In this document: piece by piece, positions 33,111 through 38,725 of the stretch
How the letters are laid out: the number at the start of each line of letters is the position of its first letter
How positions within the stretch are numbered: the stretch's first letter is position 1
Source: a virus
IMG/VR virus record: IMGVR_UViG_3300023174_000084
Coordinates: 32,001-96,000 of that record
DNA length: 64,000 nucleotides
Reading direction: 5' to 3' (one strand)
Notes under the pieces: generated by a model
Seen by the model: only the letters and a program-made list of their open reading frames with translations
Databases searched by the model: none
What the model was told of the DNA's origin: nothing
Translations under genes and position numbers: made by a program

Positions 33111-33884
33111 TTAGTTCATCATAAACTCTAAAACGCCACCATAACTATTTTCCATATCATCTTCGAGCTCTTTAATTTCTTGCATTGCTTCTTCAAAGAT
33201 TTTATCACCGTTTAATACAACACCACCTGGTAATTGAATGTTACCAAATTTTTTAAGGTTTTCACCCCATTGTCGTTTAATTAAAGCAGTTGCATATAGT
33301 TTTAGCCAGCGGTCATTCCATACTCGACTGTATACATTTGGATTAACAATAGTGTAACATTCAACTACAACAATTTGGCCTACAGTAATATCTGTATCAT
33401 CCCAACCCCAATCAATGAATAATTTTTCCATATGTCGTTGGTAACGAATTGGAACTTCACCTGTAAATAACTGTTCAAGCATTCTTAGATGCTGCATAGT
33501 CATAGTATAGTTGATGTATGATGCAGAAGTAAAATCGTAGAGTTCGTTTAATCGTAATTGATACCGCAAGTCAAACATACTGACGGTTGCTTGTGAATCA
33601 GAAAGTGGAAATATACGAGTAACACCTTCAACTCGTGTAACGTTATTAGAATTATCGGTAACATTACTTAAATCTAGGTAACGATTATCAATATCTTGTT
33701 GTGTTACTGCGTGAATATAATAAGTTTTCTGTAGTCCATCAAAATGATAGTCTTGAAAATATTGTAAGGCATCATCAACACGATCTTGAACTTGGTCTGG
33801 ATCGACATTGATTTCGATAACCGGAAAGCCAAGTTTTCTAAGGCAGTAGTCGGTAAATTGGTCTCTATTGGTAACGGTTGCCAT
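33111..33884 (-). CDS. 13: neck protein gp13
   Basis: YCLRKLG.PVIEINV, QWG.NL.KF...QLPGGV.LNG. Confidence 0.95.
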
Positions 33885-35115
33885 TTTTTTCTTTCAATTT
33901 TTGTCTAATGGTATTTATTTGAACTTGACGTTCTTTAATCGCTTGTATTAATAAAGGCACCAAACGTTCATATCTAACCGTCAAATAATTTTCACCCGAT
34001 TTACTATTACCATCTTTATCCATATCAAATGGAGCAATAGCAACCGCTTCGGGCATAATTGCTTGTATCTCTTGAGCTATCACACCAACTTGTTTTTTAT
34101 AATCATTATAACCAAATTGTTCAGCAAATTTATTTTGATTGAAAAATACTCCAGAAATTTGATTTAAAAGTGTTAAAGCATCTCTTATTTCAACTATATC
34201 TTCTTTTAGTCTTTTATCTGAAAAATAAGCGGTAATATTATTTGTAGCTATAATTTCACCAGCAGTACCTGAAGCAGCAGTATTAACACCAAGTGAATTG
34301 ATATTAGGATTATCACCTGTTGTTGTTCCTCCAGTTGGGCCAGTAGGTCCTGTTGGGCCTGTAGGACCTGCAGGTCCTGCTGATCCAGCCGGACTAGGAC
34401 CTGTAACACCAGCTGATCCAGCTGGCCCTGTTGGTCCTGTTACGCCTGTTGTACCTGCTGGACTAGGACCTGTAAGACCAGCTGATCCATTTGGTCCTGT
34501 TGGTCCTGCTGATCCAGCCGGACTAGGACCTGTTGGTCCTGTAACACCAGCTGATCCATCTGGTCCTGTTGGTCCTGTTACACCTGTTGTACCTGCTGGA
34601 CTAGGACCTGTAAGACCAGTTTGTCCTGTGGTTCCATTTGATCCTGTTGGTCCTGTTACGCCTGTTGGACTAGGACCTGTTGGTCCTGCTGAGCCTGGAC
34701 CGCCGGCCGAACCTTGTGATCCAGTTACACCTGTAGGACTAGGACCTGTTGGTCCTGTAACACCAGCTGATCCATTTGATCCTGTTGGGCCTGCTGATCC
34801 AGCCGGACTAGGACCTGTTGGTCCTGTAACACCAGCTGATCCATCTGGTCCTGTTGGTCCTGTATTACCTTGAGGTCCATTTGGTCCTGTTGGTCCTGTG
34901 TTGCCTTGGGATCCATTTGGTCCTGTTGGGCCTGCTGATCCAGCTGGACTAGAACCTGTAGAACCAGTTTGTCCTGTGTTGCCTTGGGATCCATTTGGTC
35001 CTGTAGGTCCTGGGTTGTTTGAAGCTTGTCCTGTCCAATTTCCAGCAGAATCTACAATATCTGTTGCACCAACAGATATGCCATTTTTAATTCTAAAATT
35101 TGAGTTAGTGGCCAT
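33865..35115 (-). CDS. collagen-like fibre with periodic interruptions and C-terminal S74 intramolecular chaperone
   Basis: Gly-X-Y repeats, YFSDKRLK autocleavage site, [22 protein letters not shown]. Confidence 0.88.
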
Positions 35116-35118
35116 TTA

Positions 35119-36378
35119 TCACTCCACTTTTTTTAGGAGTTCATCAATCGCACTTTGCTGTTCTTTTATAGCTTGTATTAACAATGGTATTAATTTTTCA
35201 TATTGAACTGTCAAATAATTTTCACCAGATTTACTGTTGCCTTCTTTGTCCATATCAAAAGGAGCGATCTTAACTGATTCTGGTAAAACTTTTTGAACTT
35301 CTTGAGCTATCACACCAACTTGTTTTTTATAATCATTATAACCAAATTGTTCAGCAAATTTATTTTGTGTATAATAAACACCTCTAATTTGATTCAATGA
35401 TTCAATAGCATTTGAAATTATTTCAATATTTTCTTTTAATCGTTTATCTGAAAAATAAGCAGTAATATTATTTGTAGCTCTAATTTCACCAGCAGTACCT
35501 GAAGCAGCAGTATTAACACCAAGTGAATTTACTTGAGCATTTGAACCTGATGAAAAACCTCCTGTTGGTCCAGTCGGTCCGGTTGGGCCTGTTGGTCCTG
35601 TCGGACCTGTAGCACCTGTTGCACCTGTTGGACCAGTTGGACCTGTAGCACCTGTAGCACCTGTTGGGCCTGTCGGTCCTGTAGCGCCAGTTGGACCAGT
35701 TGGTCCAGCTGGACCTGTTGCGCCTGTAGCGCCAGTTGGTCCGGCTGGTCCTGTTGCTCCGGTTGGGCCTGTTGGTCCTGTCGGACCTGTAGCACCTGTT
35801 GCACCTGTTGGACCAGTTGGACCTGTAGCACCTGTAGCACCTGTTGGACCGGTTGGTCCCGTCGGACCTGTAGCACCTGTGGCACCTGTTGGACCAGTTG
35901 GACCTGTAGCACCGGTTGGACCTGTTGGGCCAGTTGGTCCGGTTGGTCCTGTTGGTCCGGTAGCACCTGTAGCACCTGTAGCACCTGTTGGACCGGTTGG
36001 TCCTGTCGGACCTGTAGCACCTGTAGCACCTGTTGGGCCTGTCGGTCCTGTAGCGCCAGTTGGACCAGTTGGGCCAGTTGGGCCAGTAGCACCTGTTGCA
36101 CCTGTTGGACCAGTTGAACCTGTAGCACCGGTTGGACCTGTTGGACCAGTTGAGCCCGTAGCACCGGTTGGACCTGTTGGACCCGTAGAACCGGTGGCAC
36201 CTGTTGCACCTGTTGGACCAGTTGGACCTGTAGCACCTGTTGCACCTGTTGGGCCTGTCGGTCCTGTGGCGCCAATTAATCCTGTTGCAGGACCTGTCCA
36301 AACACCTGATGAATTGATTACATCTGTGGTACCGACTGTGATACCATTTTTGACTTTAAAATTAGAGTTTGTAGCCAA
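35119..36378 (-). CDS. collagen-like fibre, about 80 uninterrupted G-(P/A/S)-T triplets, S74 chaperone
   Basis: GPT/GAT array; YFSDKRLK; paralogous to 33865..35115. Confidence 0.9.
35562..36273. repeat. degenerate 9-bp tandem repeat encoding Gly-X-Thr
   Basis: ggacctgtt / gcacctgta-type units. Confidence 0.9.
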
Positions 36379-36414
36379 GGTTCATTCTCCCCTTGTTTAT
36401 TGTTATTATCTCTT

Positions 36415-37559: not shown

Positions 37560-38122
37560 TGTGTAAATACTCCGTAATATGCTCTACCATAACAACCAGA
37601 TTCAGATAGTGTTGTTATCATACCTCTAGCTCCAATCCATTCATTTAAATTCTTTTCTGTAAGTTCGTGTGGATGGCCATCATGTGCTGGTATATCAATC
37701 CATTCAAACAATCTTAATGTTGGTGCCGCTGCTTTGGCATTGGCAATAATTTTACCTGGATCTATTGCATGTTGCATACAATTATAAATCCAAACTTCAT
37801 CCCAACCTCTTTCTACAACCTCTTCACCAGGTTTAATATCAACATCTATATTATGAAAAGCATATCTCATTAATGTCCATTCAGGATATTCTATAGGATC
37901 AACAACTTTACCTTTTTTTAAGTTGATTGTTTTTAATAACATTGAAGTTGGACCACCACCAATATCTAAAATTGATTTATTAAAAACATTAAATGAATAA
38001 TGTTCTCTGTGTAATCCCATTAATTTACCATAGATGTAATGCTTTTGATCTTCATCAAATGTATTACAACAATTTCCCCAATAATCTTTTTCAAATTCAT
38101 AATCTTCCATAATTATACCCAT
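37556..38122 (-). CDS. class I SAM-dependent methyltransferase
   Basis: ILDIGGGP, VVDP, YNCMQH..DP. Confidence 0.8.
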   Translation of the reverse strand: MGIIMEDYEFEKDYWGNCCNTFDEDQKHYIYGKLMGLHREHYSFNVFNKSILDIGGGPTSMLLKTINLKKGKVVDPIEYPEWTLMRYAFHNIDVDIKPGEEVVERGWDEVWIYNCMQHAIDPGKIIANAKAAAPTLRLFEWIDIPAHDGHPHELTEKNLNEWIGARGMITTLSESGCYGRAYYGVFTQ

Positions 38123-38688
38123 TTAGGACCTTCAAACCAAACTGCAATAGAATATCTTGTACCTTTTGTTACTGGATGTGCTTGATGTGGAATAAAAGAT
38201 GGAATGAAAATTGCTGTACCTTGTTGACGAATTTCTTCTTTATTTGGATATTGGCCACAAGTTAAATCAAAAATTTCAAAATCACCACCTTCATATTCAT
38301 CTGGATCGGATAATTGAATAAGACAAGTTAATTTTCTGTGATATGAATCATTATTAATCCAGAATACATCATGATGTTTTTTATATTCTCCTTGATAAGA
38401 AGAATCATATTCAGCTAGTTGAATAAAAGATAGATTGGTAATATGAAAATTGAACCATTCACGGTTCGCTTGAATACCCATTTTCCAAATTTCTTCAAAA
38501 AGAAATTGAAAGTCTGGATCATTTGATTGAACAAAACGAACTTTACTTCTTCGCCAATTATTATCTAAAGTGTTACCATCAACACCTAATACAGCATCTT
38601 TAGAAGATTTTTTTAAACCTAAATCAAGAATTTTTTGGCAAGTTTCTTTTGAGAAATGCTTGCCAAAATAACACCATTCACCTTTCAT
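38113..38688 (-). CDS. 2OG-Fe(II) oxygenase, prolyl-hydroxylase-like
   Basis: RRS, HHD, RKLT..IQL, YEGGD, PSF.PH...PVTKGTRYS...W. Confidence 0.88.
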   Translation of the reverse strand: MKGEWCYFGKHFSKETCQKILDLGLKKSSKDAVLGVDGNTLDNNWRRSKVRFVQSNDPDFQFLFEEIWKMGIQANREWFNFHITNLSFIQLAEYDSSYQGEYKKHHDVFWINNDSYHRKLTCLIQLSDPDEYEGGDFEIFDLTCGQYPNKEEIRQQGTAIFIPSFIPHQAHPVTKGTRYSIAVWFEGPKWV

Positions 38689-38717
38689 AACAACCTCACT
38701 TATTTACATGATAAAAC

Positions 38718-38725
38718 TATTTATT
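38718..38725 (-). promoter_or_regulatory. late promoter AATAAATA
   Basis: Overlaps the stop of the 1690-aa fibre gene; heads the oxygenase-MTase-GT trio. Confidence 0.65.

Follow-up and report, generated by a model that had tools for sequence, protein, structure and literature searches.

Several described systems attach sugars to collagen-like proteins or to parts of a virion. The collagen-like filament protein BclA of Bacillus anthracis, which is rich in Gly-Pro-Thr (GPT) triplets and ends in a C-terminal trimerising domain, has a densely glycosylated collagen-like region; the glycan is GalNAc-Rha3-anthrose, in which the anthrose is terminal and 2-O-methylated (PMC10050317, PMC6222408). Animal LH3/PLOD, together with COLGALT1, accounts for collagen Lys hydroxylation and glycosylation of the hydroxylysine, and the mimivirus enzymes of this kind, among them L230, act on the virus's own collagen-like proteins (PMC9614988). 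In the cuticle collagen of Riftia and in galactosylated (Gly-Pro-Thr)10, according to a paper that cites Mann et al. 1996, Thr at the Y position of the Gly-X-Y triplet replaces hydroxyproline (Hyp), and the helix depends on glycosylation of that Thr (PMC11923368). Phage-encoded glycosyltransferases decorate structural proteins of mycobacteriophages, with the glycans, as far as the citing papers describe them, on the C-termini of capsid and tail-tube subunits and not on collagen repeats (Freeman et al. 2023, cited in PMC12619734, PMC12801897). No description of enzymes that modify phage collagen fibres was found in the searchable literature. Here we analyse a locus that holds candidates for such enzymes, in a 64,000-nt stretch of virus DNA (positions 32,001 to 96,000 of IMG/VR record IMGVR_UViG_3300023174_000084; hereafter the window). 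Genes for a 2-oxoglutarate (2OG)-Fe(II) oxygenase (OXY), a class I S-adenosylmethionine (SAM)-dependent methyltransferase (MT) and a GT4-type glycosyltransferase (GT) lie there directly upstream of genes for two collagen-like fibres, COL1 and COL2.

BclA is the nearest natural analogue of this locus, with a GPT-rich filament, a trimerising domain and an O-methylated sugar that are paralleled in the phage by GT and MT beside a rod of GPT and Gly-Ala-Thr (GAT) triplets. The phage differs from BclA in having a self-cleaving S74 chaperone instead of a globular head, a single GT4 and a small MT in a late operon, and an added oxygenase of prolyl-hydroxylase fold. The Riftia protein is an animal extracellular collagen, whereas the phage encodes a dedicated candidate transferase beside the substrate gene. 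The likeness to mimivirus L230 lies in a virus-encoded 2OG oxygenase and glycosyltransferase; however, in L230 a lysyl hydroxylase is joined to a domain of GT-A type and Lys at Y is required, as it is for Lys modification in animal collagens, while the COL1 helix contains no Lys and GT is of the GT4 (GT-B) type.

The reading that we favour, with a probability of about 0.55, is that the three enzymes form a late-expressed maturation module for the phage's own fibres, chiefly COL1 and COL2. Gene identities, folds, motifs, the promoter motif, synteny and co-variation are its basis, and from these we infer the substrates, the modified residues, the sugar and the consequences, which may include helix stability, shielding or receptor contact. 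Under the proposed mechanism, GT would move a sugar from a nucleotide sugar to the Thr hydroxyls at Y of the GPT and GAT repeats, MT would O-methylate the Thr-linked sugar, and OXY would independently hydroxylate the fibre, most likely at Pro in the X position. The action of all three would come late, ahead of S74-driven trimerisation or in the course of it, on COL1 and COL2 and perhaps on adjacent fibres as well. The decorated chains would trimerise via the C-terminal S74 chaperone, which would then cleave itself off, and the product would be a glyco-collagen rod of ~70 nm at the neck.

COL1 has the features of a substrate that such a mechanism would need. Its helix comprises 80 unbroken triplets with Thr at Y in 77, Pro at X in 46 and Ala at X in 30, and is free of charged residues. 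The 69 triplets of COL2 form 10 runs, separated by 9 short interruptions; Thr, Ala, Ser and Asn occur at Y (Thr in 36 triplets), Pro occupies X in 33, and the only 2 charged residues are both Asp. Both proteins match the Collagen domain (2e-36 and 4.4e-21, respectively) and Peptidase_S74 (2.2e-14 and 2.2e-13), and the S74 domain begins with a Ser-Asp-Lys-Arg-Leu-Lys stretch, the presumed cleavage site, as in endosialidase and T5 pb1. Given that Ac-(Gly-Pro-Thr)10-NH2 exists as a random coil except when every one of its Thr residues is galactosylated (PMC11923368), a charge-free GPT/GAT rod has a reason to need sugar. The same study found TGP triplets to be anomalously frequent in viral collagens, and stated that bacteria lack prolyl hydroxylase and that whether GPT-collagen glycosylation occurs before or after folding is unknown (PMC11923368). 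Two more fibre proteins of this phage end in S74-type chaperones, 42-52% identical to those of COL1 and COL2: one is encoded at 48515-50509 (minus strand), the other at contig positions 98373-98744, ~2.4 kb past the end of the window. The phage therefore appears to use the S74 trimerisation module at least four times.

OXY matches PF13640 (2OG-FeII_Oxy_3, E 4.6e-16), and the residues of H105-x-D107, H168 and R178-x-S180 (H105, D107, H168, R178, S180) are invariant across 57 orthologues of 52-89% identity; these include the Fe(II) triad HxD...H and the basic residue for the 2OG C5-carboxylate that prolyl hydroxylases have. The AlphaFold model (pLDDT 91) predicts a double-stranded beta-helix nearest to protein prolyl hydroxylases. 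The top Foldseek matches were PHD2, PhyA, PPHD and PBCV-1 vCPH (TM 0.69-0.77), and the top nine matches by VIA-align, among 48,161 chains, were all prolyl hydroxylases or their kin (Z 15.4-20.0), including PPHD (20.0), TaPHD (18.8), vCPH (18.2), PhyA (17.3), Cr-P4H (16.1) and PHD2 (16.1). OXY is thus nearer to prolyl hydroxylases (Z 16-20) than to the lysyl hydroxylases L230 (14.1) and LH3 (13.6). The resemblance to vCPH (5c5t) may extend beyond fold, triad and basic 2OG residue, in that both are virus-encoded and the virus's own Pro-containing repeats are the likely substrate; yet identity to vCPH, PHD and PPHD is only 15-23%, and Pro in the phage stands at X of G-P-T or G-P-Q, not at Y of X-Pro-Gly. 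The best PDB sequence match was PiuC/YbiX (E 4e-4), the literature on which concerns iron uptake; the match is limited to the C-terminal core, and PiuC/YbiX was set aside as a guide to OXY. A profile search of 185,579 prokaryote species genomes found only 4 OXY loci, all on contigs of metagenome-assembled genomes (MAGs) that may be phage, and OXY is therefore left without a cellular context. In a cyanomyovirus virion preparation, a 2OG oxygenase with the annotation prolyl dihydroxylase has been detected (PMC12801897).

For MT, the glycine-rich motif I (D53-I-G55-G-G57-P58) and D75, the acidic residue that follows strand 2, are invariant. Foldseek matches of the MT model (pLDDT 89) were all class I methyltransferases, including the sugar O-methyltransferases EvdMO1, RebM and AtmM, with probability 1.0 and a TM of only 0.5-0.65, which supports a Rossmann-like class I SAM methyltransferase fold in general terms only. 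MT has no Pfam or NCBIfam match, its phrog_3603 family is listed as 'unknown', and no curated subfamily that names a substrate was found. GT matches PF00534 (1.5e-14), PF13692 (9.2e-12) and phrog_3408; in its E-x7-E motif, E267 is near-invariant and E275 invariant among 33 sequences. Against PDB sequences, GT4 enzymes aligned with GT at residues 188-350 only, that is, in the donor half, and a search of the ESM Atlas with GT gave nothing beyond generic RfaG-type clusters, without a structure.

Evidence that GT and MT work together came from their arrangement in other genomes. Of 51 phage loci anchored on MT, most have the two genes side by side. In one locus (L036; loci are numbered with an L), a single protein joins a GT-family part (30% identity over 370 residues, E 7e-48) to an MT of the window type (60%) behind it. 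GT orthologues that are 88% identical to that of the window carry an unrelated C-terminal Methyltransf_23 domain instead, and on a Verrucomicrobiales contig (L319) a GT-Methyltransf_23 fusion adjoins a collagen gene. The GT and MT families thereby appear to be functionally coupled. In other bacterial members of the GT family the fusion partner is another GT4 or a GT2, as expected if GT starts a glycan that is later extended or capped.

Synteny links the enzymes to collagen genes. IMG/VR loci were fetched via MT, gp13, the COL1 C-terminal domain and OXY, giving 289 loci in 177 non-redundant groups; the loci span at most 20 kb, so that a collagen gene elsewhere in a genome would escape. The order fibre-OXY-MT-GT-COL1-COL2-gp13 also occurs in L070/L211 and L003, and L212, L215-L220 and L244 are examples of frequent variants in which MT is absent or the collagen genes number three or four. 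Among loci retrieved by routes other than OXY, the density of OXY homologues is 11-fold higher at up to 3 kb from a collagen gene than elsewhere (18 vs 9, binomial p 2e-9). GT homologues, counted in IMG/VR loci that were retrieved through neither GT nor MT, are 22-fold denser within 3 kb of collagens with a Y=Thr fraction of at least 0.5 (12 vs 5), while in the same loci the density near Thr-poor collagens is raised only 2-fold, which is not significant. Consistent with this, the Y=Thr fraction is higher in GT-bearing groups (Mann-Whitney p 6e-6). Two Synechococcus phages have the GT-collagen linkage at a genome position other than that in the window: ACG-2014f, with the order collagen-x-x-MT-GT-OXY-x-giant fibre beside the baseplate hub, and S-CAM7, with two collagens-GT-x-OXY-fibre. 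In L011-L015, L047 and L049, a distant GT (27-32%) and an MT flank Thr-rich collagens of 900 aa. OXY itself lies upstream of gp13 in dozens of non-redundant loci, where its orthologues accompany collagen fibre genes of the Y=Thr and Y=Gln types alike. It is missing from 6 of the 7 full-flank groups with an X=Pro fraction of at most 0.11 (Mann-Whitney p 0.009, a small sample).

Additional support for a collagen substrate of GT came from bacteria. A profile scan for GT, with one genome per prokaryote species (genomes and MAGs), identified 57 bacterial GT loci of 32-71% identity, of which 18 have a collagen-like open reading frame (ORF) within 3 kb. The Y=Thr fraction of the adjacent collagen is at least 0.39 in 16 of these 18, and 0.0 and 0.25 in the other two. 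The holders include Chitinophaga, Verrucomicrobiales, Desulfosarcina, Rhizobiales and Saccharibacteria, among others. In four Chitinophaga isolates, a chromosomal GPT/GAT-rich collagen-like gene (PF01391, E 1e-35 to 3e-42; 415-514 aa) begins ~50 nt after GT, with SusC/D-like genes on the flanks (L317:8001-10457, L315, L318, L320). These arrangements point to a GT-collagen linkage that is independent of phage fibre modules. No OXY homologue was found in the bacterial GT-collagen loci, which argues that GT likely needs no prior hydroxylation. On a Desulfosarcina chromosome (L349:1468-12091), a GT4 gene lies between a gene for a 516-aa collagen-containing protein and genes for large baseplate- or contractile-injection-system-like proteins; collagen-tipped fibres of contractile-injection-type systems may be glycosylated too.

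A second type of phage collagen comes with a different set of enzymes. Many gp13-linked loci have three tandem collagen-S74 genes with mostly Gln at Y (GAQ/GVQ/GPQ), followed by an OXY orthologue, a second 2OG-FeII_Oxy_3 protein, a GT2-DUF6445 protein and a GT2-methyltransferase fusion (L155:10451-14713; also L162, L271 and L283); L162 keeps the set without the OXY orthologue. The DUF6445/GT2 set is present in 18 of 18 OXY-bearing groups with a Y=Gln fraction of at least 0.37 and in 0 of 22 with a fraction of at most 0.2, while GT4 is confined to fractions of at most 0.12 and never occurs with Gln-type collagens. The recipe of oxygenase, glycosyltransferase and methyltransferase would thus be kept while the families switch with the chemistry of the repeat, a pattern that is difficult to account for if the substrate is anything other than the repeats. 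A broader and more tentative proposal, which we think somewhat more apt to be wrong than right, is a modular 'collagen decoration code' in tailed phages and some bacteria. A prolyl-hydroxylase-type oxygenase would be shared, and the Y residue would set the other enzymes: GT4 and a methyltransferase for the Thr type, with methyl-glycosylated Thr needed for GPT/GAT folding, and a second oxygenase, DUF6445, GT2 and MT for the Gln type.

The trio sits within the virion genes (Table 1), in the order fibres-OXY-MT-GT-COL1-COL2-gp13-gp14-gp15-gp16-x-gp17-gp18. The corresponding T4 order is wac-13-14-15-16-17-18, and the two collagen genes here occupy the place of wac. Each of the three enzyme genes has one copy in the 115.6-kb contig. 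The first-pass annotation of this DNA, made from the letters alone, had proposed these enzyme identities, an almost all-Thr, uncharged collagen, and a trio inside the virion cluster upstream of two S74 collagens and gp13; domains, motifs and fold models (Foldseek, which it had recommended for all three enzymes, was run for OXY and MT), the COL1 composition, the coordinates and the gene order agree with it, and all genes of the region are on the minus strand. Between the gp16-like and gp17-like terminase genes lies a 239-aa ORF (30068-30787, minus strand) with no PHROG match.

Table 1. Features of the locus (coordinates in the window).
Feature	Position	Strand	Remarks
Gp13-like neck/head-tail adaptor	33111-33884	-	own ATAAATA at 33912-33918
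COL2, collagen-like COL1 paralogue with S74 chaperone, 416 aa	33865-35115	-	
COL1, collagen-like fibre with C-terminal S74 intramolecular chaperone, 419 aa	35119-36378	-	
Second late-promoter-like site, ATAAATA	36415-36421	-	37 nt before COL1 TTG start
GT, GT4-type (GT-B) glycosyltransferase, 376 aa	36429-37559	-	phrog_3408, E-x7-E; GTG start
MT, class I SAM-dependent methyltransferase, 188 aa	37556-38122	-	phrog_3603; alternative start 38110
OXY, 2OG-Fe(II) oxygenase, 191 aa	38113-38688	-	PF13640, prolyl-hydroxylase fold
Late-promoter-like site, AATAAATA	38718-38725	-	30 nt before OXY start; overlaps giant fibre stop codon
Giant repeat-rich fibre protein, 1690 aa	38724-43796	-	directly upstream of enzyme operon; possible further substrate
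Third short collagen-like fibre ORF, 356 aa, 18 triplets	43834-44902	-	just upstream of giant fibre gene

Expression signals suggest that the enzymes are made late. The core ATAAATA occurs 21 times in the contig, with 21 of 21 copies on the coding strand and 0 of 21 on the non-coding strand, and 15 copies lie 5-85 nt ahead of ORF starts; the distances to the start are 30 nt for OXY and for the giant fibre, 37 nt for COL1 and 28 nt for gp13. The window holds 15 copies, against ~33 expected on both strands. Selection against fortuitous late promoters would be consistent with this under-representation and with the strand bias. The sites probably work as late promoters, judging from T4-like phages. 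With one copy 30 nt before OXY, the trio appears to have its own late-type site, and COL1 and COL2 appear to share another. Scans for sigma-70 promoters and terminators gave counts at chance level. The MT stop codon is overlapped by the GTG start of GT (GTGA), and the overlap of OXY with MT is 10 nt, or gives way to a gap of 2 nt if MT begins at its second ATG; the three genes are therefore predicted to be translationally coupled, going by this packing. The first-pass annotation had seen one late promoter ahead of three overlapping genes. The late-type AATAAATA and the MT/GT overlap bear this out, but the site at 38718-38725 differs from the T4 TATAAATA, the OXY/MT overlap depends on the start chosen, and the site before COL1 is an addition. 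COL1 apparently starts with TTG (36376-36378, minus strand), with a Shine-Dalgarno-like GGGGAG stretch ahead of it, and COL2 starts with ATG and has the same first residues as its paralogue. A further ATAAATA (43826-43832), near the third collagen-like ORF, precedes the giant fibre gene.

The associations with collagen are strong without being absolute, and a number of observations weigh against a trio devoted to collagen. The trio does not behave as one unit, since OXY can be found without GT-MT and the reverse, and it is therefore best seen, from gene content, as two probably separable modules. In L221 and L022, OXY-(MT)-GT immediately precedes gp13 and no collagen lies less than 10 kb away, and MT-GT is found by lectin or papain-like proteins (L016/L023), by gp46/47 and lysozyme (L027/L030), and in a sugar-nucleotide cluster (L037). 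Conversely, a clade with Thr- and Pro-rich (GPT-rich) collagens (L264-L289) has OXY without GT, several short GPT collagens upstream of gp13 are without all three enzymes (L054, L064, L071), and actinomycete GT members have no collagen neighbour, which limits the reading further. Pro in COL1 stands at X in 46 of 80 triplets and never at Y, the position of the classical collagen prolyl 4-hydroxylase (P4H) target in X-Pro-Gly. The acceptor domain of GT has no characterised relative, and since the closest solved sequences, which are small-molecule glycosyltransferases, match in the donor half only, the acceptor is unreadable from homology. Lastly, on the OXY tree the presence of GT and Thr-richness change ~4 times each, so that the p-values above count relatives, not events; an independent-pairs test of GT against Thr content on this tree had only 1-3 usable pairs and no power, with significance out of reach. 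The first-pass annotation had proposed that the phage modifies its own collagen whiskers, that the trio should co-occur with GXT collagens, and that a trio independent of collagen in relatives would speak against it. The co-occurrence comparison speaks mostly for the proposal, which comparative genomics thus supports in part. Enrichment of GT and OXY near collagens, linkage of GT to Thr collagens, GT-MT coupling and the OXY fold favour it; the splitting of the trio and the collagen-free relatives (MT-GT in L016, L022, L027 and L037; OXY-GT in L221 and L022) count against it. Its caveat that Pro is mostly at X stands, with OXY presence tracking Pro content at X weakly.

Some of these observations could be explained if the enzymes modify virion proteins that are not mainly collagens, such as the giant repeat fibre or other fibre and neck parts, and their adjacency to collagen genes reflects a shared fibre module. 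In L214, L221, L248 and L251, OXY, with or without GT, adjoins large fibre genes that are not collagens, and no collagen is present; both in the window and in ACG-2014f the enzyme genes have a collagen gene on one side and a giant fibre gene on the other; and L016 and L023 have MT-GT beside genes for Gly/Thr-rich non-collagen proteins and a ConA-like lectin protein. While these arrangements are consistent with a general fibre-modifying function, such a function would not account for bacterial GT-collagen pairs outside any fibre module, for enzyme sets that switch with the collagen Y residue, or for a GT enrichment that is specific to Thr-rich collagens. We consider this explanation unlikely, although it fares best among the alternatives.

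A slightly less likely alternative is an auxiliary role for GT-MT, and perhaps for OXY, in which they would alter glycans of the host envelope (lipopolysaccharide (LPS), O-antigen or cell wall), for instance so as to prevent superinfection. Glycosyltransferases of marine T4-like phages are usually read in this way: the literature treats those in fibre-rich hypervariable regions of cyano- and pelagimyophages as host-glycan remodellers, and phage glycosyltransferases in fibre regions as modifiers of host LPS or of DNA (PMC7029224, PMC12801897). Source annotations label GT a 'glycosyltransferase involved in cell wall biosynthesis', and MT-GT does occur in sugar-nucleotide or multi-glycosyltransferase clusters (L037). 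In L022:1914-8071, genes for an FkbM methyltransferase, a GT2, a sulfotransferase and an APS-kinase-like P-loop protein are followed by OXY-MT-GT, directly upstream of gp13; the content of this cluster suggests a methylated or sulfated glycan. Interpretation as host-glycan enzymes is challenged by the late-type promoter motif of the operon and its place inside the virion block, and by the tight linkage of GT to collagen genes in phages and bacteria. No membrane-anchor or lipid-carrier genes were seen in the operon, in a search that was not exhaustive.

The enzymes might also act in sequence, as in Skp1 of Dictyostelium and in plant extensins, with OXY making Hyp at X, GT glycosylating the Hyp and MT capping the sugar, so that Thr would not be the acceptor. 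The predicted translational coupling of OXY, MT and GT in one operon is consistent with such a relay, as are the presence of PhyA, the Skp1 prolyl hydroxylase, among the nearest OXY structures and the high X=Pro fraction of GT-bearing loci (0.33-0.67). However, the bacterial GT-collagen pairs have no OXY homologue, L146 and L164 have GT by Thr-rich, Pro-poor collagens without OXY, and OXY occurs without GT in many loci, which makes the relay improbable. That OXY is unrelated to fibres, and acts on a non-structural protein of host or phage, in the way of Pseudomonas PPHD on EF-Tu, or on a small molecule, as other 2OG oxygenases abundant in phages would, is the least credible alternative. Among structures, OXY matches PPHD bound to EF-Tu best, and viral P4H-like genes, among the most abundant 'auxiliary' genes in aquatic viromes, have a use that has been called cryptic (PMC9301287), but OXY is 11-fold enriched by collagen genes, keeps a constant place upstream of gp13 in dozens of non-redundant loci and has a late-type promoter.

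GT and MT have relatives of 70-75% identity in the Synechococcus phages ACG-2014f and S-CAM7, and the phage was at first assumed to be a cyanomyovirus from GT and MT matches that were confined to Synechococcus phages. This was overturned by the tail sheath, which is nearest (49-56%) to those of Stenotrophomonas phage DLP_6, Methylophilales phage Melnitz, Pelagibacter phages Mosig/HTVC008M and Sinorhizobium phages. The sequencing runs listed as containing most of the stretch are all lake or freshwater DNA metagenomes, from two studies, with no RNA run among them, and a megablast of the 6-kb region against 50,697 phage records gave no match. With the tail sheath near that of non-cyanophages and GT and MT near those of cyanophages, the source is therefore, by these comparisons, probably an uncultured freshwater phage of the T4 superfamily and not a cyanophage, and the enzyme genes appear to be shared horizontally with cyanophages.

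With two substrate genes and three candidate enzymes within 4.9 kb, the locus is a compact, cloneable test case, and the Chitinophaga isolates are a cultivable system for GT. If the decoration code is true, there would be a Gln-directed collagen modification, which has no known precedent, and a function for the very abundant, cryptic viral 'P4H' genes. If the trio does mature the phage's own fibres, tailed phages would build glyco-collagen fibres, and GT would represent the first dedicated Thr-collagen glycosyltransferase family, common to Chitinophaga and other bacteria. Many glycosyltransferases that are annotated as 'cell-wall' or 'LPS' enzymes in the fibre regions of phages would then have to be reread as modifiers of the virion, which would bear on host recognition and on recombinant collagen engineering.

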